Assembly (NCBI RefSeq): GCF_028368995.1
Contig: NZ_JAQNDL010000001.1
Span: forward strand, 4,160,001-4,224,000
Source of the DNA: Nannocystis bainbridge
GTDB taxonomy: Bacteria; Myxococcota_A; Polyangia; Nannocystales; Nannocystaceae
Reading direction: 5' to 3'
Length of the DNA stretch: 64,000 bases
Shown: piece by piece, positions 308 through 64,000 of the stretch
How the letters are laid out: each line of letters starts with the position of its first letter
Position numbering within the stretch: the stretch's first letter is position 1
Notes under the pieces: generated by a model
What the model was told of the DNA's origin: nothing
Databases searched by the model: none
Seen by the model: the letters and a program-made list of their open reading frames with translations, nothing else
Translations under genes and position numbers: made by a program

Positions 308-335
308 TGTCCCCGGGGACATGCTCCGAAGAGCA
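308..335. repeat. 14-bp TGYC-N6-GACA units x2, with an ATG at the junction
   Basis: TGTCCCCGGGGACA TGCTCCGAAGAGCA. Confidence 0.75.
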
Positions 336-1283
336 TGTCGCGGCGGCGCGCTGGTCGTCCTGGCCTGCGGCTGGGCGGCCCTCCGCCTGCAGATGAACGG
401 CGAGTACAAGGGCGCGACCTGGGCCCAGATCGCCGAGTTCACCGCGCCGCTGCCGTTCGGTCACCGGCCGCTGATGTCGCTGGCGGCCTGGCCGCTGCGG
501 GCGGCGACGGACTGGCCGCTGGCGCTGGTGTGGGGCGCGCTCGAGGCCGCAGCGGCGCTCGGGCTGTGGCTCGCGCTGCGAGCGGCGCTGCGTCCGCTCG
601 TGGGTGCCCGTTGGGACATGTTCTTTGCGACATGTTTCTTCGCGCTGCTGGCGTTCCCGCTGCTGCTCAAGCACAAGTGGGCGGTGTTCTACCCGTGGGA
701 CACGCCGGCGATGGCGTTCACGGCGGCCGGGCTGGCGCTGGTGGCGAGCCGCAGGTTCGCGGCGGCGACCGGGCTGTGCTTCGTGGCGGCGCTGAACCGC
801 GAGAGCGCGGCGCTGATCCCAGCGGCCGCGCTGGCGCTGCACGTCGGCTTTTCAAGACATGTCCTTCGGGACATCCGAGCAGTGACGGGCCCGGTCCTGG
901 CGATGACGGCCGCGGTGGTGGCGGCGCGCGCGGCGGTGATGCTGGCGCTGCCCGACAACCTCGGGGCGGCGCTGCACTTCGCCATCGGCAAGAACACGCC
1001 GCGTTGGCTGCACAACCTCGAGTGGCTGGCGGAGCCGGTGCACTGGCTGTGGCTGCCGATGTACTTCGCGCTGCTGCCGGTGGCGTGGGCGCTGCTGTGG
1101 AGGTGGATCTCCGCCGACCACCGCCGCCTCGCGCTGGTCGCCCTGGCGTGGTTCCTCGGCCTGATGCTGGTCGCCAACATCTACGAGCCGCGCGTCTACG
1201 GCGAGCTGCTCGTGCTCCTCTACGTCCCCGTCGCGGCCGCGGCGTGCCGCTGGCTGCGCGCTGATACACTGGGCGCGGCATGA
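321..1283 (+). CDS. Polytopic membrane protein, unknown function
   Basis: Multiple hydrophobic segments with short loops (PFGHRPL, YPWDTP, LNRES, YEPRVYGE); ATG at 321; overlaps the start of the next gene. Confidence 0.65.
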   Translation: MLRRACRGGALVVLACGWAALRLQMNGEYKGATWAQIAEFTAPLPFGHRPLMSLAAWPLRAATDWPLALVWGALEAAAALGLWLALRAALRPLVGARWDMFFATCFFALLAFPLLLKHKWAVFYPWDTPAMAFTAAGLALVASRRFAAATGLCFVAALNRESAALIPAAALALHVGFSRHVLRDIRAVTGPVLAMTAAVVAARAAVMLALPDNLGAALHFAIGKNTPRWLHNLEWLAEPVHWLWLPMYFALLPVAWALLWRWISADHRRLALVALAWFLGLMLVANIYEPRVYGELLVLLYVPVAAAACRWLRADTLGAA

Positions 1284-2047
1284 GCAAGATCGAGCTGACG
1301 CCGGCGCAGAAGCTGGAGATCTTCGAGGAGTACCAGCGACGCATGCGCAGCTGCGTGCCATGGGACGCGGCGATGAAGTGGGCACCGGAGCTCAACCTCG
1401 TGGGCACGTCGTACCGGCCGCTCATCGCCTTCCCCGAGCTGGCGCCGAGCGACGCGCCGGTGGCCGAGCTGAACCCGGCCGAGCACGCCGACTCGCCGAA
1501 CAAGCTGTTCCGCTACTGCATCCGCTTGCACCGCGCTGGCCGCAGGCTGCAGACGTGGTGGGGGCCGGAGACGGGCTCGGTGATCTTTGACAGCGATGTG
1601 CCGATCCCGGCGATCTTCCAGTGCCTCGAGGGCGAGCCCGGGGTGTGGAGCGAGACGCCGTGGATGTCGCTGACGCCGGCCGAGCTGATGACGCTGCGCG
1701 AGGGCACGCGCCAGGCGAAGGGTCGAACGGTGATCGCGGGCCTCGGCCTCGGCCATCAGCTGATCGAGGCGTCGCGCCGGCTGCAGGTCAAGGAGGTGGT
1801 GCTGGTCGAGCGCAGCCAGGAGCTGGTCGATTTCTACCTGCCGAAGATCCGCCCGCACGTGAAGAAGCGCCTGACGGTGATCGTGGGCGACGCGTTCGCG
1901 GTGCTGCCGACGCTGGCGGCCGACGTGGCGCTCGTCGACATCTTTCCGAATTACGGCGGCAACGAGGCGGCGATGCTCGAGCTGCGCCGGCGCTGCCCGA
2001 AGATCAAGAAGCTGTGGGGCTGGGGCACGGCGACGATGTCGCTGTGA
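1280..2047 (+). CDS. Class I SAM-dependent methyltransferase-like (spermidine-synthase-like) protein
   Basis: VIAGLGLG glycine loop, VVLVERSQE acidic strand end, IVGDAF, LVDIF. Confidence 0.6.
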   Translation: MSKIELTPAQKLEIFEEYQRRMRSCVPWDAAMKWAPELNLVGTSYRPLIAFPELAPSDAPVAELNPAEHADSPNKLFRYCIRLHRAGRRLQTWWGPETGSVIFDSDVPIPAIFQCLEGEPGVWSETPWMSLTPAELMTLREGTRQAKGRTVIAGLGLGHQLIEASRRLQVKEVVLVERSQELVDFYLPKIRPHVKKRLTVIVGDAFAVLPTLAADVALVDIFPNYGGNEAAMLELRRRCPKIKKLWGWGTATMSL

Positions 2048-2113
2048 TCGGGACGAACGGTCGACGGGCGGGCGAGCTCCGCGGCATCGTCGCTCGAAAC
2101 GCGCCCCGAGTCT

Positions 2114-3076
2114 TCAGGACATGTCCTTGAGGACACGTCGCAGGAGGTCCGGCGCGCCGTGGGCGGTGAGGCGGCCCGAGGCGTCGATCTGCAGCTCGAC
2201 GTGATCGCGGCCGCGCCACAGCGCCGGGTCGGCGTGGCGCGGGGTGAGGTGGACGATCTGCTGGTTGGTCGAGCCGATCCACCGGCGGCCCGCGGCGGGT
2301 TCGCGGCGGCGGGCGTCGAAGCGGCCGTCGACGAGGGTGTCGGCGGCGTCGAGCAGGGCGCGCGCCCCGGGCATGGCCTGCAGCTCGGCGTGGGTGCGGC
2401 CGGTGAACACGAGGGTGCCGAGGCCGAGCTCGCGGGCGGCCCGGCACAGCGCGGCGACGGCCTCGGGTTGCTCGCTCGGTTCGCCGCCCAGCACGGTGAG
2501 GCCGGTGATCGCGTGGAGGTCGCGAGCGGCGCGCAGCTCGTCGACGAGCGTGGTGATGGCGAGGGCTTCGCCGCCGTCGCGGGCGAACAGCTCGGGGTTG
2601 CAGCAGCCGGGGCAGCGCAGGGTGCAGCCCTGTACCCAAACGGCGAACCGCAGGCCGGGGCCCTCGGCCTCGGTGCAGGCGACCCTGGCGGCGACCCGGA
2701 GCGTCACCGGCGAGGCGAGCGAGTCCCATGTCCCGACGGGCCTCGCGTTCGCGGCGAGGGCCTGCGGGTCCGTCGCAGAATCACATGTCCCTGCGGACAG
2801 CTTCCTCGCGGTTCGCCGCGGCGCCGTCGCGGAATCACATGTCCCTGCGGACAGCTTCCTCGCGGTTCGCCGCGGCGTCTCGACTTGCCCCGAATCCGTC
2901 GCGGAATCACATGTCCCTGCGGACATGTTTTTCGCTTCGAGCCGCGGCGTCTCGCCGTGAGCCGAGCCCGTCGCCGAATCACATGTCCCTGCGGACATGT
3001 CGCTCGCGTCGGGCCCCGTCGCAGCGGCTCGCTCGCTCGGCTCGACCTGCGCGCGGTCGCCTGGCTTTCCGCTCAT
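2114..3076 (-). CDS. Radical SAM 4Fe-4S protein, NrdG/activase-like, with repetitive N-terminal extension
   Basis: EAEGPGLRFAVWVQGCTLRCPGCCNPE (CxxxCxxC), LGGEP, DTLVDGRF, WIGSTNQ; start uncertain. Confidence 0.8.
   Translation of the reverse strand: MSGKPGDRAQVEPSERAAATGPDASDMSAGTCDSATGSAHGETPRLEAKNMSAGTCDSATDSGQVETPRRTARKLSAGTCDSATAPRRTARKLSAGTCDSATDPQALAANARPVGTWDSLASPVTLRVAARVACTEAEGPGLRFAVWVQGCTLRCPGCCNPELFARDGGEALAITTLVDELRAARDLHAITGLTVLGGEPSEQPEAVAALCRAARELGLGTLVFTGRTHAELQAMPGARALLDAADTLVDGRFDARRREPAAGRRWIGSTNQQIVHLTPRHADPALWRGRDHVELQIDASGRLTAHGAPDLLRRVLKDMS
2770..3001. repeat. Four in-frame repeats (54, 72, 72 bp spacing), each carrying GAATCACATGTCCCTGCGGACA
   Basis: Copies start at 2778, 2832, 2904, 2976; encode SAGTCDSAT on the minus strand. 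Confidence 0.9.
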
Positions 3077-3077: not shown

Positions 3078-3881
3078 TCACTCGTCCAGCGGCGCCGGCA
3101 AATCCTCGGGGGCGTCGTCGTCGTCCGCGGCGAGCGGGGCCGGGTGGAGCGTGCCGGCGAACAGGGCGTGGAGATCGAGCTCCCGGTGCTCGCCGGCCGG
3201 CAGGTCGCGCGGCAGCTCGAGCGGGCCGAACGAGACGCGGCACAGGCCGAGCACCTCGGCGCCGAGGGCGGCGAAGATCCGGCGGACCTCGTGGAACTTG
3301 CCGGAGGCGATCGTGATGCTCGCCAGCGCACCTGTCCCTCGAGGCACCTGAAGACCGGGGTGAGCCTCGCCCTCGGCGAGCGGCAGGAGGTCGAGGATCT
3401 CGGGGCGGTGGCCGTCGTCGAGCTCGAGGTCGGGCGGCGGCGCGCGCCAGGGGCCGGTCAGGGCCGCCTGGTAGGTGCGGCGCACGGCGTAGCGCGGATG
3501 GGTCAGCCGGTGCAGCAGGGCCCCCTCGGTGGTCCACAGCAGGAGGCCGGAGGTGTCGAGGTCGAGGCGCCCGACGGCCCGGAGATCGCGCCCGAGCGGG
3601 GCCTCGCGGACGAGGTCGTAGGCGGTCTGGTGGCGATCGTCGCGCAGCGCCGTGACCACCCCGACGGGCTTGTGCTGCAGCAGGTGATAGCGGACCCGCA
3701 GCGTCAGCGGCTGGTGGTCGAACAGCACCGTCTGCGGCAGGGCGCTCGGCGCGATCTTCAGCCCAGGGTCGCGCAGCGGCTCGCCCTCGGGCGTCCGCAC
3801 CCGCCCGAAACGGACAGCCCGGGTGACCTGCCCGCGCGACAGGTTGAGGTTGTGAGCGATGAGGAGGTCGAGCCGCGGCAC
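3078..3881 (-). CDS. RsuA-family pseudouridine synthase with S4 domain
   Basis: RLD N-terminal S4-like start, HKPVGVVT, VGRLDLDTSGLLL, GKFHEVRRIF. Confidence 0.9.
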   Translation of the reverse strand: MPRLDLLIAHNLNLSRGQVTRAVRFGRVRTPEGEPLRDPGLKIAPSALPQTVLFDHQPLTLRVRYHLLQHKPVGVVTALRDDRHQTAYDLVREAPLGRDLRAVGRLDLDTSGLLLWTTEGALLHRLTHPRYAVRRTYQAALTGPWRAPPPDLELDDGHRPEILDLLPLAEGEAHPGLQVPRGTGALASITIASGKFHEVRRIFAALGAEVLGLCRVSFGPLELPRDLPAGEHRELDLHALFAGTLHPAPLAADDDDAPEDLPAPLDE

Positions 3882-5180: not shown

Positions 5181-5284
5181 CGCGCCGGATCGCCAGGCCG
5201 CGCAACCGCGACGTCGCGCTCCGACGCGTCGTCCTTCGACATGTCCTTCGAGACATGTCAATCGGAGACAAGCCATGACGCGCC
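5164..5284. repeat. 23-bp direct repeat flanking 14-mer units
   Basis: TCGGAGACAAGCCATGACGCGCC at 5164 and 5262. Confidence 0.85.
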
Positions 5285-5833: not shown

Positions 5834-5903
5834 TGTCCGTTCAGACCTGTTCTTTCGTACCTTGCGTTTCAGACCTGTCGCAATGCACATGTCCCTGCGA
5901 ACA
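5834..5903. repeat. 14-bp-period tandem array x5
   Basis: TGTCCGTTCAGACC TGTTCTTTCGTACC TTGCGTTTCAGACC TGTCGCAATGCACA TGTCCCTGCGAACA. Confidence 0.75.
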
Positions 5904-9675: not shown

Positions 9676-9717
9676 TGTTCTTTACGGCATGTTGTGAAGG
9701 ACATGTTCCAAAAAACA
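9676..9717. repeat. 14-bp-period tandem array x3
   Basis: TGTTCTTTACGGCA TGTTGTGAAGGACA TGTTCCAAAAAACA. Confidence 0.7.
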
Positions 9718-13871: not shown

Positions 13872-14513
13872 TCATGCGGCGGCGCTCCGCACGGCGGCCA
13901 GCAGCGTCGTCGCGCGCTCGCCGATGGCTGTGAGATCTCCGGCTTGTACGAGCGCCGGGGGGAACAGCGGCGTGGTGAAGCCCACCCCTGCCGCGCCGGC
14001 TTGCAGCACCGGAGCGGCGTTCGCGGCGTCGACCCCGTTGGTCGGCACCAGGTTCAGGGCCGGCATCGGCCCCAGCACCGCGCGCACGAACGCGGCGACG
14101 TCGCCGGGCGCGGGGAACAACTTTTGCGCCGCCGCCCCGGCCGTGTGCGCGCGCCACAGCTCCGTCGGCGTGAAGCAGCCGGGCACCGCCGCCGCCCCGA
14201 GCGCGCGCGCGCAGGCCACCACGCGCTCGTCCAGCACCGGCGACACCAGGAACCGGGCCCCAGCCCGGACCGCCTCGCCGGCGGTCTCAGGGTCCATCAC
14301 CGTGCCCGCGCCGACCGTCAGGCGGGCGTCACGGGCGAACTCGGCGACGAGGCTCATCGCCCCGGGCGTCGTCACCGTGAACTCGAGCACCCGGAAGCCG
14401 GCCTCGACGGCCGCCCACATCGCCGCGGCGGCGTGGTCGCGGCTGGTCGCGCGCATGATGGCGACCGCGCGGTGCTGGGCGAGCGCCGCGGTGAAGGCTG
14501 TCTCCGAGGACAT
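13872..14513 (-). CDS. eda: KDPG/KHG aldolase
   Basis: VAIMR, LEFTVTTP, VGAGTV, GARFLVSP, PGCFTPTE, KLFPA, PTNGV. Confidence 0.9.
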   Translation of the reverse strand: MSSETAFTAALAQHRAVAIMRATSRDHAAAAMWAAVEAGFRVLEFTVTTPGAMSLVAEFARDARLTVGAGTVMDPETAGEAVRAGARFLVSPVLDERVVACARALGAAAVPGCFTPTELWRAHTAGAAAQKLFPAPGDVAAFVRAVLGPMPALNLVPTNGVDAANAAPVLQAGAAGVGFTTPLFPPALVQAGDLTAIGERATTLLAAVRSAAA

Positions 14514-14811: not shown

Positions 14812-14928
14812 TGTCCCCACGGACATGTCCATGCCGCGCGAGTGACATGTCCCTTCGGACAGCCGACCTCCTGTGAGTCCCGGCATGTCCCGGAGGACAG
14901 GTTCATCCCGAGGCTGTCCCGAAGGACC
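14812..14928. repeat. Cluster of four TGTCC-N4-GGAC(A) units
   Basis: TGTCCCCACGGACA, TGTCCCTTCGGACA, TGTCCCGGAGGACA, TGTCCCGAAGGACC. Confidence 0.8.
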
Positions 14929-16745: not shown

Positions 16746-17130
16746 GTGTTCAGGAGACTTCAGACCCCGGGGAAATTCCACAAAGCGGCGCATTCAGACC
16801 GTGCTGGGGATCACAGGACCGGCTGCGCACCCCCCTGCGCACGCGCGCAGGCGGTCGCGCTCCGCCCGACCCCGACGCAACGGCCTGTGATCTGTCCCCG
16901 AGGACAGATGAACCATGGATCGGCGAGCGCGCTCGCGACCGCCGCGCAGGGGCCGCCCGCGTCGCCAGGACCGAGAGGCGGTCGTCCCGCCTCGAAGATC
17001 GCGCCGACGAGGAGCAGCCGCGAGCGCAGAGGCGCCGGTCGGCCCTCGCCTTCGAGATGTCTCTTCGGACATGTCCTCCGGGACTGCTTGACGGCCTCGT
17101 CGCCGCCCGCGTAGAACCGGCGCCCGCGGC

Positions 17131-18294
17131 ATGAAGCTCGTCGACGTGACCGAGTTCTACTCCCAGCGCGGCGGCGGGGTGCGCACGCACCTGACGGAGA
17201 AGGCCGCCGCGGCCGCGCGTCGCGGGCACGAGCACCTGGTCTTCGCGCCTGGTCCGCGCCACGCCGCCGACCCGGGCGTGCGCTACATCCCCGGCCCCTC
17301 GCTGCCGTACGACCCGACCTATCACCTGCTGTGGCGGATCGGCGCGGCCCGGCGGATGCTGCGGGCCGAGCGGCCCGACGTGCTCGAGATCCACTCGCCG
17401 TACGTCGCCGCGATCGCGGCGCTGGGGCTGCGGCCGGGCGAGTTCGGCGTGCGCACCTTCGTCTGGCACTCCGACTTCATCGACACCTACCTGCGCGGCG
17501 GGCTCGAGCGGCGCCTCGCGCTGCTGTTCCGCGGCCGCGCCGCGCGGGCCGCAGATCGCGTCGTCGAGCCGCTGTGGGCCCACGTGCGCCGGATCGCCGA
17601 CGCCTGCGCCATGACCGTCGTCGGCTCGCGCTGGCAGCGGCACAAGCTCGAGCAGCACGGCGTCGCCCGCGTCGAGCACATCCCGTTCGGCATCGAGCCC
17701 GGGCGCTTCGCCCCCGAGCGGCGCAGCGAGGCCCGCCGCCAGGAGCTGCTGGCCGGGCGCGCGGGGCCGCTGATCGTCGCCATCGGCAGGTTCGCCGTCG
17801 AGAAGCGCTGGGACGTGGTCGTCGACGCCTACGCCCGGCTCGCCGAGCGCCACCCCGGGGCGGTGCTGGCGGTGTTCGGCGACGGTCCCGAGAGACATGT
17901 CTTCAAGGACAGGCTCGGCGAGCGCGCCGACGTCCGCGTCCTCGGGTTCGAGCGCGACCGCGACCGCCTGGCGGTGACGCTCGCCAGCGGCGACCTGCTG
18001 CTCCACGGCTGCCCGTTCGAGACCTTCGGCCTCGGGGTCGCCGAGGCGATCGCCAGCGGCCTGCCGGTGGTGGTGCCCGACGCCGGCGGCGCGTCCGAGC
18101 AGGCGCCCCCCGAGAGCGCGGCGCAGTACTCCGCCGGAGACGTGGACGCCTGCGTGGCCGCCGCGGAGGCGCTGCTGGCCGTCGACCCGGCCGAGCTGCG
18201 GGCCCGCGCCGCCACGGCGGCCCGCCGGGTCCCCAGCGTCGTCGATCACTTCGACGCCCTGTTCGGCCGCTACCGCGAGCTGCTCGCGCGTTGA
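17131..18294 (+). CDS. GT4 glycosyltransferase
   Basis: FYSQRGGGVRT, IGRFAVEKR, FGDGP, ETFGLGVAEAIASGLPVV. Confidence 0.9.
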   Translation: MKLVDVTEFYSQRGGGVRTHLTEKAAAAARRGHEHLVFAPGPRHAADPGVRYIPGPSLPYDPTYHLLWRIGAARRMLRAERPDVLEIHSPYVAAIAALGLRPGEFGVRTFVWHSDFIDTYLRGGLERRLALLFRGRAARAADRVVEPLWAHVRRIADACAMTVVGSRWQRHKLEQHGVARVEHIPFGIEPGRFAPERRSEARRQELLAGRAGPLIVAIGRFAVEKRWDVVVDAYARLAERHPGAVLAVFGDGPERHVFKDRLGERADVRVLGFERDRDRLAVTLASGDLLLHGCPFETFGLGVAEAIASGLPVVVPDAGGASEQAPPESAAQYSAGDVDACVAAAEALLAVDPAELRARAATAARRVPSVVDHFDALFGRYRELLAR

Positions 18295-25897: not shown

Positions 25898-25953
25898 TGT
25901 TCATTAGGGCATGATCCCGGGGACATGTCCGATTCGACATGTCCCCGGAGCCC
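25898..25953. repeat. 14-bp-period tandem array x4 between convergent genes
   Basis: TGTTCATTAGGGCA TGATCCCGGGGACA TGTCCGATTCGACA TGTCCCCGGAGCCC. Confidence 0.8.
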
Positions 25954-47060: not shown

Positions 47061-48317
47061 ATGGCCGAGCGCCCCCGCTTTTCCTCCCGCTATCTGGCGT
47101 ACGCGCTCGCGGTCGTGTTCTTCGCCAACTTCCTCAACTACGCCGACCGTCAGGTGGTGAGCGCGCTCGAGGTCGAGATCAAGAGCGCCTTCGCCATGAC
47201 CAAGGCGGAGTTCGGCATGCTGTGGTCGGCCTTCACGCTCGGCTACATGGTGTTCGCGCCGCTGATCGGCTACTGGGCCGGGCGCTACCGCCGGACCATG
47301 ATCTTCGCCGCGTGCGTGTTCATCTGGTCGCTGGCGACGATCGGCTCGGGCATGGCGACCGGCAAGACCGGGCTGTTCGTGTCGCGCTTCTTGATCGGCG
47401 TCGGCGAGGCCGGCTGCCTGGTCATCGGCCCGACGCTGGTCGCGGATTACTTCTCCGACCAGGTCCGCGGCCGCGCGCTGGCGCTGTTCTTCCTCGGCAT
47501 GCCGCTCGGCGGGACCGCCGGTTACCTGATCGGCGGGCTCGTCACCCACTACTCCGGCAGCTGGCAGAACGCGTTTTACGTGGCCGGCGCGCCCGGGCTG
47601 GTGGTCGCGGTCCTGATCGCGCTGCTGGCCGAGCCGCCCCGCCCCGGGTCCTCGGGGACAGGTCCCGAAGAACATGTCCAGGGGGCCAGGTCGTACCTGG
47701 CCCTGCTGCGCAACAAGACGCTGATGCTGATCATCCTCGCGCAGGCGTTCGCGGTGATGATCCTGGTGCCGGTCCTCCACTACAGCATCGAGTTCTTCCA
47801 GAAGGAGCGCGGCATGACCAAGGTCGAGGCCTCGCTGGCGCTCGGGGTGATCGGCCTGGTCGGCGGCCTCATCGGCTCGGGCCTGGCCGGCCTGCTCGGC
47901 GACCGCCTGGCCCGCCGCAGCCGCGGGGCCTACGCGCTGCTGGCCGGCATCGCCTACGCGCTGGCGCTGCCGGCCTTCTTCATCGGCTTCTCCGTGGAGA
48001 GCCGGGCGATCTTCCTGCCGGCCCTGGGCGTCGGCGCGACCTGCCTGTTCGTCTGCATGCCCGCGGTCAACACCCAGATCGCCAACGTCGTGCCCGGCGC
48101 GCAGCGAGCGATGGCCTACGCGCTGGCGGTGTTCATCCTCCACTTCCTCGGCGACATGGCGGCCCCGCCGCTGTTCGGCCAGGTCGCCGACGTGTACGGC
48201 GCGCAGCAGACGTTCCTCGTCACGTCGTCGACGCTGATCCTCGCGGCGGCGTGCTGCTTCCTCGCGGTGCGCACCGCCGAGAAGGACATCAAGAAGTTCG
48301 TCGAAGGCCAGCCGTAG
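47061..48317 (+). CDS. MFS transporter, spinster-like
   Basis: NFLNYADR, RFLIGVGEA, ADYF...RGRAL; about 12 TM segments. Confidence 0.9.
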   Translation: MAERPRFSSRYLAYALAVVFFANFLNYADRQVVSALEVEIKSAFAMTKAEFGMLWSAFTLGYMVFAPLIGYWAGRYRRTMIFAACVFIWSLATIGSGMATGKTGLFVSRFLIGVGEAGCLVIGPTLVADYFSDQVRGRALALFFLGMPLGGTAGYLIGGLVTHYSGSWQNAFYVAGAPGLVVAVLIALLAEPPRPGSSGTGPEEHVQGARSYLALLRNKTLMLIILAQAFAVMILVPVLHYSIEFFQKERGMTKVEASLALGVIGLVGGLIGSGLAGLLGDRLARRSRGAYALLAGIAYALALPAFFIGFSVESRAIFLPALGVGATCLFVCMPAVNTQIANVVPGAQRAMAYALAVFILHFLGDMAAPPLFGQVADVYGAQQTFLVTSSTLILAAACCFLAVRTAEKDIKKFVEGQP

Positions 48318-48545
48318 CGCGGGCCGCGGAGACTTCGCTGCCCACAAGGACATGTCCATATGTCCTTGTGGGCCTCGGGCCGGGCGTGGGCGCTGGACTG
48401 GCTCCTGCGCCCGCACGGGCCCCCGCAGTGTCCGTCCCTCGGCTATCTACTTCGCGCGGTCTGCTGCGCGTCTCTCGAGGCTAGCGACCACGCGTGGCCG
48501 CGACAAGGTGTCGCCGGACCTCACGTGGCCTTTGCGACAGCCGAC

Positions 48546-49898
48546 CTATCCGTCGTAGCTCTCGTCACCGATGGTGGCTTTGAGCGCACCCGTCGCGGCG
48601 TCGTACACCTCGACGGAGCTCATGCGCACCAGGAAGACATGGTTCGCCGTGGCCTCGATGCCGCGCAACCAGTCGACCGCGAAGATGCTGCGGAGCTTGT
48701 TGTCCCACAGGCGATCGCCGGTTTTGGCGTCGAAGCCGACGAGGTGCCAGTGTTCGGAGCCCTCGCCGTAGGTGGCGAAGTAGCGGCCCCCGGCCATGAT
48801 GTCCTGCTCGTTGTCGCGCTCGCGCACCGAGGCGAGGTCGACCGCGGGCACGGGGCTCTTCCAGCGGACGGCGCGGTTGGCCGGGTCGAAGCCGAACGCC
48901 ATCGGGTAGGCGGTGCCCGGCGACTTGACGCCGCGCGCGACCCCGAGGTCGTCGCCCAGGTGCACGCCGGAGACCTCGATGCCCTCGACCTTGGGCGCGC
49001 GACGCAGCCGCTCGCTGGTCGTCAGCGCCGGGTCGCCGCCGCGCGGGCTCCACCCGCCCTGCTTGTCGCACGAGCCCGGCAGCTTCTCGTCCTTGAGGGC
49101 CGGCGTGGCCGGGTCGACCAGGAACTGGCGGCGGTCGACCAGCGCGAGGTAGAGCCGCGGCTTCTCACCTGTCTTTTCGGCCAGGCAGAAACGATCGGCG
49201 CGATCGGTCAGCGCGATGTCCTGCACCGGCTTGCCGTCGGCGAGCTCGTACACCTTGAGCTTGCCGCGGAAGTCGGTCATGAGCAGCCGCTCGTCGACGA
49301 CGCTGAAGAAGGTCGCGCGGTAGGCCTCGCCGTAGCTGCCGAACGGGCCGACGCGGTAGCGCAGGGCCCCGGTCTCGGCCGCGAACACGCCGACGTGGAG
49401 TTGGTCGTCGGGGCGCACGCGCAGGCGGCCGATCACGTGCTCCTTGCCGTCGATGGGCACGACGATCGCCCGGCCGCCGACCTCGTCCCACATGAAGTCG
49501 GCCGTGTTGCGCATCGGGTCGGCCTTGACCGGCGGACCGCCGACCGTCGGCGCCTCGGCGGGCGCGCTCGGGGTGCCCGGCACGAGCGCCTGCAGATACG
49601 GGGTCGAGGTCGCGGGCGCCATCATCAGGTACCCGGCGGCGCCGCCGATCGCCACCATCGTCGCCACGCCGGTGACCAGCGCGCCCACGACCTTGGGCTG
49701 CGCGCCGGCGTGGACGTTGTGCGGCCGCACGGCCTGGATGTTGGGCAGCGCGCCGGCCTGGGCGTTGTGCGGCTGCACGACGGTGGCGCGCGGCAGCTGG
49801 AAGGAGGCGCCGCAGTACTGGCAGCGAGCGCTGCGCTTGCTGTCGTCGGGCTGCAGCTTGGCGCCGCAGTTGGGGCAGTCGAGGCTGATGACGGCCAT
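48546..49898 (-). CDS. Zinc-ribbon + TM + PQQ-type beta-propeller protein
   Basis: CPNCGA...CQYCG; TM helix; blade motifs AETGALRY, DAKTGDRLW, DAATG. Confidence 0.7.
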   Translation of the reverse strand: MAVISLDCPNCGAKLQPDDSKRSARCQYCGASFQLPRATVVQPHNAQAGALPNIQAVRPHNVHAGAQPKVVGALVTGVATMVAIGGAAGYLMMAPATSTPYLQALVPGTPSAPAEAPTVGGPPVKADPMRNTADFMWDEVGGRAIVVPIDGKEHVIGRLRVRPDDQLHVGVFAAETGALRYRVGPFGSYGEAYRATFFSVVDERLLMTDFRGKLKVYELADGKPVQDIALTDRADRFCLAEKTGEKPRLYLALVDRRQFLVDPATPALKDEKLPGSCDKQGGWSPRGGDPALTTSERLRRAPKVEGIEVSGVHLGDDLGVARGVKSPGTAYPMAFGFDPANRAVRWKSPVPAVDLASVRERDNEQDIMAGGRYFATYGEGSEHWHLVGFDAKTGDRLWDNKLRSIFAVDWLRGIEATANHVFLVRMSSVEVYDAATGALKATIGDESYDG

Positions 49899-49912: not shown

Positions 49913-52603
49913 CTACGACTCGCCGCGCGGGGGCGCACTCGAGGCCGTTCCGCCGTCGCCCAGGGCCTCGTGGATCCGCTGCGCCAGCGCTGCGCCGACA
50001 CCTTTCACCTCGGTGAGGCGCGCCGGCGCCGCGGCGCGGATCTCCGCGACCGTGCCGAAGTGCTGGATCAGCGCCTTCTTCAGCGAAGGGCCGACGCCCG
50101 GGATGTCGTCGAGCGCGCTGTGCAGCGCTCGTTTGCCGCGGCGCTTGCGGTGGTGCGTGATGGCGAAGCGGTGGGCCTCGTCGCGGATCTGCGTCATCAA
50201 GTACAGCTCGGAGCTGCCGGGGCGCAGGCGGATCGCGTCCTTGGCTCCGGGTACGAACACGCGTTCCGGTTTGACCTCCCACTCCTCGGGCTCGTCGTCG
50301 GGCGTGCGCACCACGTAGTCCTGGTAGCTCTGGCCTGGCCGCTGCGACGCGTCGTCGTCGGGCTCCGCCGGCGCGGGCGCGTCCTCGGCCTTGAGCGAGC
50401 TCTCGGCGTCGATCCCGGCCGTGGCGTCGGCGTAGGTCTTGAACGTGCGCAGCCGCTGCAGCGCCGCCTTGCCGCGCCCGAGGCCCTGGCGCCGCTCCTT
50501 GGCCAGCGAGACGACGTCGACCCCGCCCTCGCCGATCGGGACCCCGAGGTCGTTCAGCGCCGCGATCACCCGCCCGAGCTGGCCCTTGCCGCCGTCGATC
50601 ACCAGCAGGTCGGGCAGCGCCCAGGTGTTCTCGACGACCTCGTCGGCCGCGCCGATCGCGACCTCGGCCTCGGCCTCGGTCGAATCATCTGTCTCTTCGG
50701 ACATGTCCTCGCCGACATTCGCGCGCTTGAGCCGGCGGCCGAGCACCTCGTACATGCTGCGGAAGTCGTCGTTCTGGCGGTCGCCCTGGGCCAGGCCGCC
50801 CAGGCCCCGGATCTTGAAGCTGCGGTAGCGCCGCTTGGCGGCCGCGCCGTCGACGAACACCACCATCGAGGCGACCGTGTCCTGGCCCTGGATGTGGCTG
50901 ATGTCGTAGCACTCGATCACCCGCGGCAGGCGCGACAGGCCGAGGCGCTGCTGCAGGGTGCGCAGGGCCTGCTCGCTGTCCTCGGCGCGGTTGCGGCGCG
51001 AGTTGAAGTTGGAGGCGGCGTTGCGCTGGGCCAGGATCGAGAGCTTCTTGCGGTCGCCGCGCTCGGGCACCAGCAGCGCGACCTTGCGGCCGCTGTGCTC
51101 GCGCAGCCACGACTTGAGCGGCGCCTCGTCGTCGTCGAGCAGCTCGGACGGCAGGAGCACCTCGTCGGGGATCGTCGGCGCGTCGTCGTAGTAGGCGACG
51201 AGGAAGCTGCCGAGCACGTCTGGGTCGGGCAGCTCCATGCCGCGGGCCGAGAACGTGCGCGTACCCATCAGCTTGCCCTGGCGCACGTGCATGACCACGA
51301 ACTCGACCTGGCCGCCCTCGCGGTACATGCCGACGACGTCCTGGTCGAGCGTGACCGAGCCGACCACCTGCTGCCGCTCGAGGCTGGTGCTGATCGCCGA
51401 GAGCTGGTCGCGCAGGCGGGCCGCCGTCTCGAACTCGAGCGCGCCGGCGGCGTCCTCCATCTGCGTGGTGAGGCCGGCGACCAGCTCCTTGTGGCGGCCC
51501 TCGAGGAACAGGCCGACGCCCTTGACCTGCTGGCCGTAGGCGTCGCGGTCGACCGGATAGACGCACGGCGCCGGGCAGCGGCCGATCTGGTGCTGCAGGC
51601 ACGGGCGCTTGCGGTGCGTCAGGGTGTAGTCGGTGCAGGTGCGCAGCTTGAAGTAGCGGTTGACGACCTTCAGCGTGTGGCGGGCGCTCTGGGCCGAGTG
51701 ATACGGGCCGAAGTAGCGGGCGCCGTCCTGACGCATGCGCCGGACCAGCTCGAGCCGCGGCCATTTGGCCTTGGGGTCGAGGCGCAGGACCAGGAACTGC
51801 TTGTCGTCGCGCAGCTTGACGTTGAAGCGCGGCTTGTACTTCTTGATGAGATTATTCTCGAGCAGCAGCGCCTCCTTGTCGTTGGAGGTCACCACCGTCT
51901 CGATGTCGCCGAGCGTGTGCGCCAGGTACGGCACGAACAGCCGCGGGTCGGTGCCGTTGAAGTACTGGCGCACGCGCGCGCGCAGCCGCTTGGCCTTGCC
52001 GACGTAGACCACGTCGCCCTTGCGGTCGCGCATGATGTAGACGCCGGGCAGGTCGGGCAGGCGCTCGACGATCTCCGCCAGCTCCTCGGCCGTGCCGGCG
52101 CGCGGCTGCCACACCGCGTCGGCCTGGATCGCCGCCAGCGCCTCGGTCTTGGCCGAACCGGCGAACCGGCCCGGCGCGTCGAGGTCGGCGGCGCCGCCGT
52201 CGGCGACCTCGAAGCTCTCGAGCACGTCCTCGGTCTCCGGCGCGTACGCCTCGGTCGAGGGCGGCTTCGGGGCGTCGTCCGGATATGGCTTTTGGGACAT
52301 GCCCTCGGGGACATGTCCTGAAGCGCCGGCCGCCGATGCCTTGCGGCCGCCCCGGGACGGCCTCGCGGGCGCCGGCTGGGAGGCGCTCGCGGGCGCCGGC
52401 TGGGGGGCGCTCGCGGGCGCCGGCCCGGAGGCGCTCGCGGGCGCCGGCCCGGCGCTCGCGGGCTCCGCGGCGTCTTCGACATGTGTCCCCGGGGACATGC
52501 CCTCAGGGGCATGTCCCGAAGGACTGGTCACAGCGGAGGCGGCGGGCGGCGCAGCGGGCGGGGCTTCGGGGCTATTCGGGGGTCGTCCTTGACGCGCGGC
52601 CAT
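49913..52603 (-). CDS. uvrC: Excinuclease ABC subunit C with low-complexity N-terminal extension
   Basis: LPDLPGVY..YVGKAK (GIY-YIG), YFGPY, IECYDISH, IDGGKGQ, IRDEAHRFA, HhH. Confidence 0.95.
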   Translation of the reverse strand: MAARQGRPPNSPEAPPAAPPAASAVTSPSGHAPEGMSPGTHVEDAAEPASAGPAPASASGPAPASAPQPAPASASQPAPARPSRGGRKASAAGASGHVPEGMSQKPYPDDAPKPPSTEAYAPETEDVLESFEVADGGAADLDAPGRFAGSAKTEALAAIQADAVWQPRAGTAEELAEIVERLPDLPGVYIMRDRKGDVVYVGKAKRLRARVRQYFNGTDPRLFVPYLAHTLGDIETVVTSNDKEALLLENNLIKKYKPRFNVKLRDDKQFLVLRLDPKAKWPRLELVRRMRQDGARYFGPYHSAQSARHTLKVVNRYFKLRTCTDYTLTHRKRPCLQHQIGRCPAPCVYPVDRDAYGQQVKGVGLFLEGRHKELVAGLTTQMEDAAGALEFETAARLRDQLSAISTSLERQQVVGSVTLDQDVVGMYREGGQVEFVVMHVRQGKLMGTRTFSARGMELPDPDVLGSFLVAYYDDAPTIPDEVLLPSELLDDDEAPLKSWLREHSGRKVALLVPERGDRKKLSILAQRNAASNFNSRRNRAEDSEQALRTLQQRLGLSRLPRVIECYDISHIQGQDTVASMVVFVDGAAAKRRYRSFKIRGLGGLAQGDRQNDDFRSMYEVLGRRLKRANVGEDMSEETDDSTEAEAEVAIGAADEVVENTWALPDLLVIDGGKGQLGRVIAALNDLGVPIGEGGVDVVSLAKERRQGLGRGKAALQRLRTFKTYADATAGIDAESSLKAEDAPAPAEPDDDASQRPGQSYQDYVVRTPDDEPEEWEVKPERVFVPGAKDAIRLRPGSSELYLMTQIRDEAHRFAITHHRKRRGKRALHSALDDIPGVGPSLKKALIQHFGTVAEIRAAAPARLTEVKGVGAALAQRIHEALGDGGTASSAPPRGES
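52287..52525. repeat. Two 14-mer arrays flanking 21-bp PAPASAS-coding repeats in the uvrC N-terminal extension
   Basis: TGCCCTCGGGGACA TGTCCTGAAG...; TGTCCCCGGGGACA TGCCCTCAGGGGCA TGTCCCGAAGGACT; CTCGCGGGCGCCGGC x4. Confidence 0.8.
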
Positions 52604-55392: not shown

Positions 55393-55563
55393 GGCCCGCA
55401 CCCGGGTCTCGTAGGTCCGAGGGCCTGGCGTGAGGGACATGTCCCACGCGCCAGGGCCTTTGGGACATGTCTAGAAAGACCGCTGGCTTCGGGCGCCGTG
55501 CGTGAGCTGGCGCGCAGTCGCGCCAGGCTCGATGATCGGACCTGCCCCGCGGGACAGCCGAGC

Positions 55564-57110: not shown

Positions 57111-57166
57111 TGTCCTCTCGTACAGGGTTCTTCGTGCATGTCCTGGCGGCCATGTCGTAAAGAACA
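57111..57166. repeat. 14-bp-period tandem array x4
   Basis: TGTCCTCTCGTACA GGGTTCTTCGTGCA TGTCCTGGCGGCCA TGTCGTAAAGAACA. Confidence 0.7.
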
Positions 57167-58619: not shown

Positions 58620-58650
58620 GAGGCCGAGGCTGTCCCGAAGGACAGGTCGC

Positions 58651-60170: not shown

Positions 60171-60330
60171 GCAGTCGCGCCCCTGCGCGCCGGCCGCGGC
60201 ATTGCCGAATCTCCCGCCGTTGCCGGACTCGGCCGACGCGAGCGGCGCGCGGCCGGTGATTCCGCGGGTGATGCGAAGAGGACGTGGGACCGGCGAAGAC
60301 CTGCCTGGTCTTCGGATCATGTCCCTTACG

Positions 60331-61104
60331 TCATGTCTCTTCGGACTCAGGCTCGACGGCCGCGCCGACGCGCTCGATGCAGCGCCAGCGGCCGGCGATG
60401 CGGCGCTCGTGCGGCAGGTAGCGGGCCTTGTAGGCCATCGACGGGCACTCGCGGATGTACAGGCCGAGGTACAGGTAGCGGAGGCCCCAGGCGCGGCACA
60501 GCTCGAGCTGCTTCATGATCGAGAACACCCCGGGCGACAGCGGCTCGAAGTCGGGGTCGAAGTAGAAGTAGACGGCGGACAGGGCGTCCTCGGCGCGGTC
60601 GACCACGGCGACGCCGACCAGGCGGCCGTCGACGCGGTAGCGCAGCTCGAACGACTCGCAGCAGGTGTCGACGAGGAAGGCGCGGTAGCCGACCTCGTCG
60701 ATGTCGTGGCCGTCGGCGTTGAGGTCGCGCTCGGCCTTGTGGCGGTTGTAGAGCGCGACCTTCTCGGGCGTCAGCTCCGGCGGCCCGATCTCGACCTCGA
60801 TGCGGGACAGGCCGCGCTTGTACACGCGGCGCTGGGTCTTGTCGGCCGCGAAGCGCTCGACGTCGATGCGGATCGGCTCGCACGCCTGGCAGCTCGGGCA
60901 CGACGTGCGGTAGAGCAGCACGCCCTGGCGGCGGTCGCCGACCCGCAGGCGCTCGGCGAACTCCTGCGGGGTGAGCATCCGCGTCGGTACACGCAGCGGC
61001 ATGCGGGCGTCGCGGCCCTGAAGATAGGGGCAGACGGTCGCCTCGTCGTACACGAGCAGCTCCGGCGGGTCGGCCGCGAGCAAGCGAGGGCGCCAGCGCA
61101 TCAT
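60331..61104 (-). CDS. bpt: ATE1-like aminoacyl-tRNA-protein transferase (Bpt)
   Basis: CPYL, G.RR.G..LYR..CP.C.AC..IR, LSAVYFYFDP, YLYLG.YI..C..M.YK. Confidence 0.9.
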   Translation of the reverse strand: MMRWRPRLLAADPPELLVYDEATVCPYLQGRDARMPLRVPTRMLTPQEFAERLRVGDRRQGVLLYRTSCPSCQACEPIRIDVERFAADKTQRRVYKRGLSRIEVEIGPPELTPEKVALYNRHKAERDLNADGHDIDEVGYRAFLVDTCCESFELRYRVDGRLVGVAVVDRAEDALSAVYFYFDPDFEPLSPGVFSIMKQLELCRAWGLRYLYLGLYIRECPSMAYKARYLPHERRIAGRWRCIERVGAAVEPESEET

Positions 61105-62016: not shown

Positions 62017-62129
62017 CCGGGCGCGCCGCCGTACACGCGCTTACCAGACGCGAGTACACCGGCGCGCACTCGCCCGGCGCGTCGCGCGGTCGCCCTTCGC
62101 CGGCCGCTGGTGTTAGGATGGACCCGGTT

Positions 62130-62537
62130 ATGCCCAAGGTCTTGATCGTCGAGGACAACGAACTCAGCCGGGACATGCTCTCGAGGCGACTGCGCCGCAA
62201 GGGCTACGAGGTGCTCGTCGCCGTCGACGGCGGCGAGGGCGTCGCCATGGTGAAGAAGGAGAAGCCCGACATCGTGCTGATGGACTTGAGCCTCCCCGAC
62301 ATGGACGGCTGGTACGCCACGCGGGTGCTGAAGGAGCACGAGGCGACCGCGAATATCCCTGTCATCGCCCTCACCGCGCACGCCATGTCCGGCGACCGCG
62401 AGAAGGCCCTCGAGGCCGGCTGCGACGACTACGACACCAAGCCGATCGACCTGCGACGGCTGCTCTCGAAGATCAACCGCTTCGTGCCCGACCCCGAGGG
62501 CGGCTCCGGCGATCCCAGCGACAGCCGGGCCGGCTGA
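62130..62537 (+). CDS. Single-domain response regulator (DivK-like)
   Basis: VEDN, LMDLSLP..DG, IALTAHA, TKP. Confidence 0.92.
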   Translation: MPKVLIVEDNELSRDMLSRRLRRKGYEVLVAVDGGEGVAMVKKEKPDIVLMDLSLPDMDGWYATRVLKEHEATANIPVIALTAHAMSGDREKALEAGCDDYDTKPIDLRRLLSKINRFVPDPEGGSGDPSDSRAG

Positions 62538-62851
62538 GCCTCGACCGCTTCGCACGCAGCGTCGTCGCCCGTCGGCGCCTCGCCGCACCTCCGTGGTGCC
62601 GGCTCGCAGGCCCACGACCGACGACGCGCTCGCGTCTGTCCTTAAAGTCATGTCCTCGGGGCACGCCGCGGTCGTCCGTCCGCGGATTTGCGCGTCCGTC
62701 CGCGCCCCGATCGCCAGGAATTCGCGCCGGCCCGACCCGGAAAAACGCGACAGAACCATGTCCTGACCGCCTCCTCACGCGTCCTGCAATTGACACCCCT
62801 CGCGGGCCCCTGTAACGCTCTTTTGACACGGTTTTCCCGCGGAGAACTGCG

Positions 62852-64000
62852 ATCACGGACTCGCACCCACACGCCGGAGCGCCCGCCGAGAGCGGGCTCG
62901 AACCCCAGGGGGAGGCCGGGGCGGGCAGCCGGCTGGCGGCCCTGCGCGCGCAGATCGAGCAGCGTTTCGGCTACTTGCCGGCGTTCTTCGAGCCGGCCTT
63001 CGCCTGCCCGGACACCCTCGCCGACCTGTGGCACGCCGCCAGACACGCCTACCTCGATTGCCCGCTGCCGGCGGTGTTCAAGGAGCTGACCCTCCTGCTG
63101 GCCCTCCGCCGCGCCGGCGCCGGCCTCGTCGAGCACGCGCTCGCCCTCACCCGCCTGGGCCTCGCGCCCGCGGCCGTGCTGAGCGCCCTCGACGAGCCGC
63201 GCGCCTTTGTCGATCAGCTGGCGGCCGCCCGCGATGTGCTCCGCGAGCAGCACCTGCACCTTGAGACATGGCCTGAAGACCCTGTCCTTCGCGACATGCT
63301 CATGCGCTGCGGCCTGGCCTTCGCCGCCGACCCGCAAGGCGGCGCCGACGGTCGCGCTGCGCTGGCCGCCGCGTTGACGCCGGCGCTGTACACCCGCTGG
63401 ACCGCGCTGGCCGCCTACGCCCGCGGCCGCGCGGCCTGGTTCGAGCTGCACCCCGACCTGGCCCAGCGGATCGACCCGCCGCTGGTCGAGACCCACGCAT
63501 GGTTGCTGCGCGAGGCGCCCGGGCTCGCGCGTCACTTCGGCGACCCGGCCGTCGGCGCCCGCCCGCTGGTCGCGCCCGCGCTGCTGCGCCTCATCGACGC
63601 CGTCCCGACCGGCATCCTCCAGCTCGACGCCCGCGGCGCGATCGTCATGTCGAACACCACCGCGCAGCGGCTGCTCGGCCACGGCCCCGAGGCGCTCGCC
63701 GGCCTGACGATCGACGACCTCGAGCGCGGCGCCCTGCGCGACGACGGCCAGCCGCTCGCCCCCGGCTCACCGCTGCGGCGCTGCCTCGAGCAGCACAAGC
63801 CGCAGCCCCCGCTCACCGTCGGCCTCCGCACCGCCAGGGGCGAGCTGCTGTGGACCAGCCTCGCCGCCGTCCCGCTCGCGGACGACGACCACGGCGCCGC
63901 GATCATGGTCACGCTGGTCGACATCGGCGAGCGCCGCAAGATCGAGCGCGCCCTGCAGGAGAGCGAGATCAAGTACCAGCTGCTGGTCGAGGCCAGCGAC
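62852..64000 (+). CDS. PAS-domain sensor protein (probably a kinase or cyclase), N-terminal part; runs off the window end; absent from the ORF track
   Basis: Frame +2 is open from the TAA at 62813 to the window end: IEQRFGYLPAFF...WFELHPDL, then PAS (IDAVPTGILQLDARG...DIGERRKIERALQESE). Confidence 0.8.
   Translation, partial: MTDSHPHAGAPAESGLEPQGEAGAGSRLAALRAQIEQRFGYLPAFFEPAFACPDTLADLWHAARHAYLDCPLPAVFKELTLLLALRRAGAGLVEHALALTRLGLAPAAVLSALDEPRAFVDQLAAARDVLREQHLHLETWPEDPVLRDMLMRCGLAFAADPQGGADGRAALAAALTPALYTRWTALAAYARGRAAWFELHPDLAQRIDPPLVETHAWLLREAPGLARHFGDPAVGARPLVAPALLRLIDAVPTGILQLDARGAIVMSNTTAQRLLGHGPEALAGLTIDDLERGALRDDGQPLAPGSPLRRCLEQHKPQPPLTVGLRTARGELLWTSLAAVPLADDDHGAAIMVTLVDIGERRKIERALQESEIKYQLLVEASD

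Follow-up and report, generated by a model that had tools for sequence, protein, structure and literature searches.

What kind of element is a short interrupted palindrome that recurs about once per kilobase, within genes as well as between them, and in strictly phased arrays? The question is raised by a 64-kb stretch of the Nannocystis bainbridge genome (the window; G+C 70-74%), in which the 14-bp unit TGTCC-N4-GGACA is found far more often than in shuffled sequence. We tentatively prefer the reading that this unit is a lineage-specific duplex-DNA word that is read by a dimeric, array-forming protein and has accumulated by substitution; in this preferred reading, and with the same reserve, the unit would be neither a mobile element nor an RNA structure. 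The motif belongs to a known kind, the lineage-specific hyper-abundant short genomic motifs, and is unusual in being an interrupted palindrome, in forming strict phased arrays with unrelated centres, and in piling up right after stop codons. Highly iterated palindrome 1 (HIP1), uptake sequences and repetitive extragenic palindromic sequences (REPs) belong to the small set of sequence features that remodel entire bacterial genomes, and for several of them the origin is unsettled; a fixed 5-N4-5 palindrome in 14-bp phase with unrelated centres has not been reported for them.

The exact unit (TGTCCNNNNGGACA, that is, TGTCC-N4-GGACA) occurs 24 times in the window, whereas dinucleotide shuffles contain it 0.02 times on average and never more than once, and by this count it is a hyper-abundant short palindrome of the HIP type in the window. 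Relaxed forms are enriched as well: TGYCN6GRCA is present 51 times (5.14 expected), 58 units match at least 9 of the 10 arm positions (2.2 expected), and 106 match at least 8 (25 expected). A census with a palindromic weight matrix, in which hits were chained in a 14-bp register, returned 106 units in 64 arrays, whereas in 30 second-order Markov simulations the average was 2.3 arrays and multi-unit arrays never arose. The arrays comprise 38 singles, 14 doubles, 9 triples, 2 quadruples and 1 quintuple, and a looser criterion reaches 6 units; array density is about one per kb, and the units cover about 2.3% of the window. If the genome is about 12 Mb, pure arithmetic gives roughly 20,000 units. 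Tandem Repeats Finder detects only some of the arrays, with 67-85% matches. The recurrence had been pointed out in an earlier note made from the sequence alone, and the counts bear it out; its estimate of 35-40 loci was too low, although all 35 coordinates that it listed fall in census arrays, four of them (619, 36300, 47661 and 52300) at the second unit of an array and one (19213) off by one. Its range of 2-5 units per array agrees with the census, in which up to 5 are found, and is exceeded under the looser criterion.

The geometry is equally strict. Unit-to-unit distances peak at 14 bp (27 pairs), 28 bp (10) and 42 bp (5), just as the earlier note had expected from its exact 14-bp period, and also at 56 bp (3), with zero pairs at 13 or 15 bp. 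When TGTCC is followed by GGACA within 30 nt, the spacer is 4 nt in 24 of 27 pairs; when GGACA is followed by TGTCC, it is 0 nt in 10 cases and 14 nt in 6. The spacing TGTC-N6-GACA occurs in 36 cases, and TGTC-N8-GACA in none in the window. Lone 5-nt arms are just about 2-fold enriched (95 against 48.7 and 74 against 39.1), and the enrichment thus resides in the N4 palindrome. The second palindrome that the earlier note saw at the junctions, the decamer GGACATGTCC, is indeed there in 10 copies, but 10.6 are predicted from its overlapping parts, so that it shows no extra enrichment; because every copy adjoins a full unit scoring at least 8/10, the junction is secondary to the 5-N4-5 unit. The decamer is identical to the consensus p53 half-site, which we treat as a coincidence; the top-ranked of the literature matches listed concerned p53 or were unrelated and eukaryotic, and none of these was bacterial. 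The arrays are clustered rather than evenly spaced, since a 5.7-kb stretch of ordinary G+C (37542-43258; an HtrA-type protease, a Ser/Thr kinase and a GSDH-type open reading frame (ORF)) contains none at all. The 8.1 kb at 6396-14498 hold a single degenerate array, against about one per kb elsewhere.

Is the unit kept as a sequence or as a structure? Among 75 units scoring at least 8/10, G2 and C13 are invariant, T1 and A14 reach 95%, and the remaining arm positions 80-92%, figures that are inflated by the criterion by which the units were selected. Among 138 non-consensus arm pairs (98 units), 6 have been compensated by another Watson-Crick pair; shuffling of the right arms between units gives 5.7 (P=0.50). 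Departures from the arm consensus are mostly single transitions and symmetric (28 G.T and 35 C.A), and on the gene-oriented sense strand G.U (24) and A.C (31) pairs show no transcribed-strand bias. UUCG centres number 10 on the sense and 5 on the antisense strand, a difference that is not significant, three of the 10 coming from one tandem repeat. The arms are therefore conserved as sequence and not as pairing, and their fixed geometry fits a protein on duplex DNA rather than a hairpin, of RNA or of single-stranded DNA, that is selected for its structure. RNA folding of eight arrays was mixed and does not discriminate between the models: the two coding arrays fold no better than shuffles (z -1.5 and -0.6), and the six intergenic ones are taken up below. 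A search of Rfam at the gathering threshold, over the whole window and both strands, gave 0 matches. The flanks at -4 to -1 read G/C, A, G/C and C/A, and a foot of the GTAG/CTAC type is absent. Adjacent units share 1.19 of 4 centre positions, against 1.22 of 4 for random pairs, and none of 42 adjacent pairs has identical centres; neighbouring centres are thus unrelated, which argues that the arrays are not recent products of slippage or duplication. A slippage microsatellite or minisatellite was accordingly rejected; the earlier note had already argued against a simple slippage microsatellite from the differing centres. Some isolated units are carried in longer tandem repeats, of 54/72 bp at 2770-3009 and of 48 bp at 35305-35415.

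The copies within genes tell how the word may have arisen. In the RluA-type ORF 35971-36870(-), the stretch RLSGHVPGDMVCET encoded by a 3-unit array is equal in length in 10 Nannocystis-clade sequences and 3 distant homologues, shorter by 1-2 residues than in 6 homologues and by 7 than in one, and no homologue in the alignment has a gap that would match an inserted unit. The arrays of the two glycosyltransferase family 4 (GT4) ORFs (GPERHVFKDR and AALRGMSEEA) align gap-free to PDB 3oka and 2jjm, respectively, and the array in the central loop of the major facilitator superfamily (MFS) transporter has a length within 0-3 residues of relatives that lack the arm-encoded residues. A unit-sized insertion is therefore absent in four of the six coding cases examined (RluA-type, two GT4 and MFS). 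In the other two, which are ambiguous, Hsp33 has a 4-residue insertion at the unit relative to PDB 1vzy and 1vq0, and the UvrC array sits in a hypervariable, indel-rich linker. A PDB search with the glycosyltransferase ORF 19086-20075 gave no usable homologue. Among the Nannocystis-clade RluA-type proteins, the arm-encoded G-H-V, D-M and C persist, and centre-encoded residues vary in almost every species; in such alignments, coding copies sit at poorly conserved residues. One RluA-type protein listed as 100% identical (P0121) has GHVS where the window has GHVP, and the codon in question includes the last base of an arm as well as centre bases of the perfect unit in the array 36286-36327. This Ser-Pro difference suggests a very recent change at that spot.

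The codons themselves are affected. Arrays make up 0.82% of codons, yet they contain 11 of 25 ACA, 5 of 14 TGT and 4 of 37 CAT codons, and G+C at third codon positions (GC3) is 0.66 within arrays compared with 0.95 overall. The coding-potential trace drops at each array because of these rare codons and the low GC3, and the motif thus disturbs gene calling. Coding units are distributed 13, 13 and 5 among the three frames (n=31), the frame TGT-CCN-NNN-GGA being avoided, and none of the 10 single coding units lies in the TGT/GGA frame. Since codons are overwritten without insertion of a unit and against codon bias, we conclude that a force at the DNA level generates or maintains the word through substitutions, within the bounds of what is tolerable for the protein. 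Such a pressure prevails over an extreme codon bias and determines residues of conserved enzymes. Some arrays also coincide with gene starts and signal-peptide-like segments. The arrays at 30073-30114 and 5876-5903 encode the hydrophobic core of lipoprotein- or signal-like peptides, LSVCTCLFAHVSGC in ORF 30051-30620 and MHMSLRTLSLALAG at the start of ORF 5883-6395, and the DNA word may here supply functional peptide segments. The start codon of uvrC is the ATG of an ACATGT junction in the 3-unit array 52286-52327, and named Nannocystis UvrC orthologues start with the same MSQKPY or MSKKPY. The UvrC of the window (795 aa) has an N-terminal extension and linker insertions, both absent from Enhygromyxa UvrC.

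Where the arrays lie with respect to genes was judged on 60 ORFs called with a codon log-odds model (one 29-codon call within another gene was dropped), 45 of which are backed by Pfam; the coding fraction of the window is 87.8%. Of the 64 arrays, 39 are intergenic, 19 lie wholly within ORFs and 6 on ORF ends, and Pfam matches back the ORFs concerned. Arrays are found in 7 of 10 convergent, 12 of 27 co-directional and 3 of 10 divergent spacers, and the long convergent spacers have them at each end (32113 and 32255; 35308 and 35500; 55426 and 55543). An array starts 0-10 nt past the stop codon in 11 of 59 genes, with two further genes overlapped at the stop, whereas random placement of as many array edges in intergenic DNA gives 3.2 ± 1.6 genes and at most 10 in 2000 trials. 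On the start side, an array lies within 10 nt in 1 gene and overlaps the start of 4. In the first 40 kb, no more than two terminator-like sites fall on units, at 2909-2928 and at 308-321. The post-stop location bears on how transcription units are ended or insulated in a segment of 72% G+C in which canonical terminators, over the 40 kb scanned, are not above chance.

The comparison with other genomes suggests confinement of the motif to the clade around Nannocystis proper. UvrC of the window (49913-52300(-)) shares 93% identity with the Nannocystis pusilla protein and 92% with its N. exedens counterpart. The comparison DNA consisted of 80 loci from 80 other genomes found via a UvrC search among the matches listed, mostly from unrelated bacteria and including one Nannocystaceae metagenome-assembled genome (MAG), one Polyangiaceae and one Myxococcales locus; the exact unit is absent from these 1,279,886 bases. 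The Nannocystaceae MAG locus (L001; UvrC 61% identical; 16,540 bases, 200 of them N) contains no exact unit, no relaxed unit and no ACATGT, and no other enriched interrupted palindrome that could be a dialect of the word was found in loci L001-L003 (16-22 kb each). Of 15 aligned UvrC sequences, 6 contain EDMSEE, and these are the ones with an identity of at least 76% to the query; of 20 aligned RluA-type proteins, 9 contain GHV, each with an identity of at least 70%. It is this limitation of arm-encoded residues to the closest relatives that points to a clade-specific motif, which could serve as a lineage marker. A blastn search with an array as the query gave no match in plasmid and phage collections. 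Three facts with which any model must agree had escaped the earlier note, namely the clustering after stops, the overwriting of codons and the absence from the locus of a more distant Nannocystaceae genome.

How does the word compare with known systems? Its mode of evolution is like that of HIP1 and uptake sequences, its location like that of REP elements. The available part of one study (PMC5861425) describes HIP1 (GCGATCGC) as present both inside ORFs and between them, as overlaid on coding sequence and as a DNA-level element with no RNA or peptide role found, and argues for selection and a role in the nucleoid. The portions of the literature at hand show its function to be debated between nucleoid structure, methylation and transformation. 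Like HIP1, the Nannocystis word is a short palindrome, hyper-abundant in one lineage and found within and between ORFs by substitution; however, HIP1 is an uninterrupted 8-mer for which the accessible text mentions no short-range arrays, whereas the Nannocystis word has a 5-N4-5 layout, 14-bp head-to-tail arrays and a pile-up after stops. For uptake sequences, the accessible sections of two papers report coding copies at poorly conserved residues and in preferred frames (PMC2817400), and hairpins formed after genes by close complementary copies (PMC1852404). Uptake signal sequences and DNA uptake sequences (USS/DUS) resemble the Nannocystis word in their density of about one copy per kb, their lineage specificity, their coding frame bias and their location at poorly conserved residues, but they are asymmetric 9-12-mers that function singly, whereas the Nannocystis word is enriched only as a palindromic pair with a 5-nt arm and in in-phase chains.

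REPs and bacterial interspersed mosaic elements (BIMEs) of enterobacteria and pseudomonads are small clustered palindromes at gene 3' ends and between the genes of operons, avoiding divergent promoters; REPs are 20-40 nt long, strictly extragenic copies of master elements with a GTAG/CTAC foot, and are tied to REP-associated tyrosine transposases (RAYTs). The Nannocystis arrays are similarly located, but 19 of 64 lie within ORFs, they have no foot, and there is no RAYT in the window. The met boxes of MetJ are 8 bp long, stand head to tail without a spacer in 2-5 repeats and bind cooperative dimers at a handful of operators. They are the closest architectural analogue of the phased arrays, from which they differ in that the Nannocystis unit is 14 bp long, leaves its centre free and forms arrays about once per kb, also in genes. 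The CRP-family regulator MrpC of Myxococcus xanthus binds, according to the part of the report at hand (PMC4320627), as a dimer to the imperfect palindrome TGTYN8RAC, with 1608 putative sites. The half-sites are of the same TGTY/RACA type; however, MrpC sites are promoter sites with N8, whereas the Nannocystis unit is TGTC-N6-GACA and stands after stops. The earlier note had been wary of a match to a known transcription-factor motif, and this does not apply here, as the MrpC site is 2 bp wider and its N8 spacing does not occur in the window. Rickettsia palindromic elements are insertions of 100-150 bp that lie in genes, are read through in frame and add a peptide segment. They share with the Nannocystis arrays the presence of palindromic repeats in protein-coding genes, but the latter replace codons without a unit-sized insertion. 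A literature search that included the N. exedens genome announcement (PMC5658511, in its available part), in which no repeat or motif is mentioned, found no description of the motif, subscription journals being outside its coverage.

The tentatively preferred reading, a duplex-DNA word read by a dimeric protein, would work as follows. A dimer would contact both 5-bp arms, which lie about one turn of the helix from each other, and would polymerise head to tail. At a neighbouring dimer 14 bp further on, the helix would have turned by about 480 degrees, an offset of 120 degrees, and three units would make four turns, so that in-phase neighbours would be favoured. Copies would build up at positions that can change freely, the cause being selection for binding or a drive that favours word-bearing DNA, and copies after stops might also mark or insulate the ends of transcription units, as do paired uptake sequences in Neisseria and Pasteurellaceae and REP/BIME elements in enterobacteria. 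The 5-N4-5 layout is that of FNR-type dimer sites. The phased geometry with unrelated centres points to a cooperative protein-DNA assembly, and we infer the protein that would read the word. The earlier note had also proposed a site for a dimeric protein; sequence-conserved arms, rigid spacing and phase, the lack of a strand bias and the evidence against slippage agree with this, but no binding protein, methylase or recombinase was identified, and its suggested role in nucleoid organisation is a guess. A bolder joint claim, which we regard as possible but doubtful, is that we are dealing with an unrecognised genome-wide DNA word read by a polymerising dimer, serving either as the first palindromic self-DNA signal (for uptake or recombination) or as the nucleation site of a filament that organises the nucleoid or insulates transcription; such a word would have overwritten roughly 2% of the sequence, including housekeeping residues in UvrC, Hsp33 and the pseudouridine synthase, and would supply some start codons and signal-peptide segments.

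Several observations weigh against the reading of a protein-bound duplex word. The data come from one 64-kb window with gene calls made within the analysis, of which the start codons are the least certain part. No obvious candidate for the binding protein is found among the 60 window ORFs. A density of about one array per kb is far above that of ordinary regulator sites, and a drive without function would account for the in-gene copies equally well. The centres are biased, which would not be required of a pure spacer: TTCG or CGAA makes up 13 of 75, and over the same units a pyrimidine stands at position 6 in 81% and a purine at position 9 in 72%, a symmetric preference. Five of the six intergenic arrays fold better as RNA than shuffles (z -5.5, -5.4, -3.6, -3.6 and -2.9). 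The post-stop peak together with the excess in convergent spacers is exactly what an RNA terminator or stabiliser predicts, and hairpin-plus-T terminators in the first 40 kb are not above chance (9 against 4.6 ± 2.3 and 5 against 4.0 ± 1.8 in shuffles).

These last points lead to the other explanations. An RNA element, in which transcribed short GC-rich hairpins or 10-bp stems between successive junction decamers act as terminators without a U tract or as 3'-end stabilisers, as proposed for REP, and in which units resemble each other by common descent or gene conversion, is in our view rather unlikely. It would explain the arrays 0-10 nt past stops (11 of 59 genes, 3.2 expected), their higher frequency in convergent spacers (7 of 10) than in divergent ones (3 of 10), the chance level of canonical terminators and the good folding of intergenic arrays; the commoner UUCG on the sense strand (10 against 5) points the same way without reaching significance, three of the copies belonging to one tandem repeat. 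However, there is neither covariation (6/138 against 5.7) nor an excess of G.U (24) over A.C (31) on the transcribed strand, the centre is fixed at a length of 4 whereas RNA hairpins tolerate 3-8, and unrelated neighbouring centres contradict common descent. Moreover, 19 of 64 arrays lie wholly in ORFs, where an RNA end signal would be senseless, and the two coding arrays fold no better than shuffles. A tag of self DNA we consider unlikely but worth keeping in mind: an uptake or recombination machine would prefer word-bearing DNA, word-creating point mutations would spread and accumulate where tolerated, and the hairpin-shaped copies after genes would have been co-opted as terminators. The density of about one per kb, the restriction to one lineage and the conserved arms with variable centres directly after genes all suit such a tag, as do coding copies made by substitution at poorly conserved residues with a frame bias, which the available part of PMC2817400 describes for uptake sequences. 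What it does not predict is the strict 14-bp phasing; in addition, known uptake sequences are asymmetric 9-12-mers and mostly single, whereas here the arm is about 2-fold enriched and the unit always palindromic, and there is no competence gene among the 60 window ORFs.

The word might instead be the functionless by-product of a sequence-specific nicking, repair or methyltransferase system that converts near-cognate sites, a mechanism that has been considered for cyanobacterial HIP1; this seems improbable to us. Substitution against codon bias agrees with such a conversion. The junction contains CATG within ACATGT, a palindrome of the type that methyltransferases recognise. HIP1 is recognised by methylases, as the accessible parts of PMC4390886 and PMC13756078 state. 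No methyltransferase is encoded in the window. Biased repair predicts neither the 14-bp phase nor the post-stop peak, however, and the junction decamer is no commoner than its overlapping parts predict (10 against 10.6); for HIP1 itself, conservation has been argued in favour of selection instead, as far as the text of PMC5861425 at hand goes. Least of all do we favour a mobile element of the REP/RAYT, miniature inverted-repeat transposable element (MITE) or Rickettsia-palindromic type that inserts copies, sometimes in frame, an explanation that we hold to be very improbable. The absence of a unit-sized insertion in four of six coding cases speaks against it, as do a 14-bp unit far under known element sizes, centres that differ between all adjacent units, flanks without a GTAG-like foot, the lack of any transposase or RAYT among the 60 window ORFs and the lack of array matches in plasmid or phage collections. 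On its side are palindromic units that are mostly extragenic and often clustered, the carriage of some units by tandem duplications of 48-72 bp, the 9 of 64 arrays with 3 units (42 bp, frame-preserving), 3 of which lie within ORFs, and the 4-residue insertion at the Hsp33 unit. The arrays are collected in Table 1.

Table 1. Arrays of the TGTCC-N4-GGACA unit in the window and their surroundings; (+) and (-) give the strand of the ORF
Position	Array	Location and encoded residues
308..335	2-unit array	1 nt past stop of ORF 1-306(+), overlaps called start of ORF 321-1283(+)
605..632	2-unit array	within ORF 321-1283(+), encodes GARWDMFFAT
846..873	2-unit array	within ORF 321-1283(+), encodes GFSRHVLRDI
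2122..2135	single perfect unit	3' end of radical-SAM ORF 2114-2707(-)
2786..2997	four identical units (2786, 2840, 2912, 2984)	each in 54/72-bp tandem repeat, between ORFs 2114-2707(-) and 3078-3881(-)
3333..3346	weak single unit	within pseudouridine synthase ORF 3078-3881(-)
5242..5255	single unit, degenerate in-phase neighbours	19 nt upstream of start of ORF 5275-5817(+)
5834..5903	two 2-unit arrays	5834-5861 with ACCTGT junctions; 5876-5903 overlaps start of ORF 5883-6395
9676..9717	3-unit degenerate array, TGTTC arms	divergent intergenic region
14499..14512	single unit	codons 8-12 of aldolase ORF 13872-14534(-), MSSET; start call uncertain
14812..14928	four spaced singles (14812, 14848, 14886, 14915)	last ends 3 nt from stop of ORF 14932-15690(-)
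16893..16906	single perfect unit	divergent intergenic region
17058..17085	2-unit array	45 nt upstream of start of ORF 17131-18294(+)
17884..17911	2-unit array	within GT4 glycosyltransferase ORF, encodes GPERHVFKDR
19214..19241	2-unit array	within glycosyltransferase ORF 19086-20075(+), encodes HALKDMSEVT
21381..21394	weak single unit	within MMPL ORF 20087-22759(+)
22762..22789	2-unit array	starts 2 nt past stop of ORF 20087-22759(+)
24099..24265	five spaced singles (24099, 24131, 24173, 24213, 24252)	first starts 2 nt past stop of ORF 22906-24096(+)
25585..25612	2-unit array	within GT4 ORF 24446-25852(+), encodes AALRGMSEEA
25898..25953	4-unit array (5 from 25884, looser criterion)	fills convergent spacer, ends 5 nt from stop of ORF 25959-27305(-)
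27445..27508	single (27445) and 2-unit array (27481-27508)	divergent intergenic region
30073..30114	3-unit array	encodes signal-peptide-like LSVCTCLFAHVSGCS of ORF 30051-30620(+)
32113..32154	3-unit array	starts 2 nt past stop of AraC-type ORF 31169-32110(+)
32255..32268	single unit	32 nt from stop of ORF 32301-33071(-), other end of spacer with 32113 array
35308..35513	five spaced singles (35308, 35351, 35399, 35436, 35500)	first three in 48-bp tandem repeat; 2 nt past one stop, 15 nt before other
36286..36327	3-unit array	within RluA-type ORF 35971-36870(-), encodes RLSGHVPGDMVCET
36864..36947	2-unit and 3-unit arrays in one register (6 units, looser criterion)	between Hsp33 stop and start of ORF 35971-36870(-)
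37528..37541	single perfect unit	within Hsp33 ORF, encodes MSAGT, at 4-residue insertion
43259..43328	5-unit array	covers stop of ORF 42809-43282(+), ends 3 nt from stop of ORF 43332-44921(-)
44840..44853	weak single unit	within ORF 43332-44921(-)
46156..46169	single unit	within ORF 44918-46492(-)
46394..46407	single perfect unit	within ORF 44918-46492(-), encodes LSCRT
47647..47688	3-unit array	central loop of MFS transporter ORF 47025-48317(+), encodes GSSGTGPEEHVQGAR
48339..48352	single unit	21 nt past stop of ORF 47025-48317(+)
48526..48539	weak single unit	6 nt from stop of ORF 48546-49898(-)
49170..49183	weak single unit	within ORF 48546-49898(-)
50690..50717	2-unit array	within uvrC, encodes NVGEDMSEET, hypervariable linker
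52286..52327	3-unit array	holds uvrC start codon
52484..52525	3-unit array	86 nt past stop of RseP-type ORF 52612-53700(-)
55426..55481	4-unit array	33 nt past stop of ssb ORF 54739-55392(+)
55543..55556	single unit	7 nt from stop of ORF 55564-56427(-)
57111..57166	single (57111) and 2-unit array (57139-57166)	between ORFs 57194-57781(-) and 56846-57106(-)
58631..58644	single perfect unit	6 nt from stop of ORF 58651-59349(-)
60306..60347	3-unit degenerate array	overlaps 3' end of ORF 60331-61104(-)
62637..62650	single unit	99 nt past stop of response-regulator ORF 62118-62537(+)
63283..63296	single unit (3 from 63255, looser criterion)	within PAS-domain ORF 62975-64000(+), encodes PVLRDM

The window contains other tandem repeats, which are unrelated to the motif: a 24-bp repeat in 5 copies between the RseP-type gene and uvrC (52346-52467), a 27-bp coding repeat (PPPDTKVET) in the Ser/Thr kinase (40769-40942), a 15-bp coding repeat (DAKPV) in ORF 35529-35879 (35607-35778), and the tandem repeat of a long Gly-rich tail of the single-stranded DNA-binding protein (SSB; 55056-55333). 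At 7169-9481(-) and 11472-13697(-), paralogous ORFs of 770 and 741 aa each combine a ThiF domain with a nitroreductase-like match and flank two small ORFs without a Pfam match, 9880-10308(+) and 10490-11221(-). The region 7169-13697 has the lowest G+C of the window (0.68); it may be a peptide-modification cluster and was possibly acquired recently. At 43332-46492, two tandem paralogues of 529 and 524 aa, both on the (-) strand, match no Pfam family at E<=1e-5; their N-terminal regions are rich in Thr and Gly, and a C-terminal SCHD...AAGLDLQ segment is common to them. Next to them, a 141-aa ORF at 46522-46947 consists of a lone Ribonuclease_3 domain and is mini-RNase-III-like.

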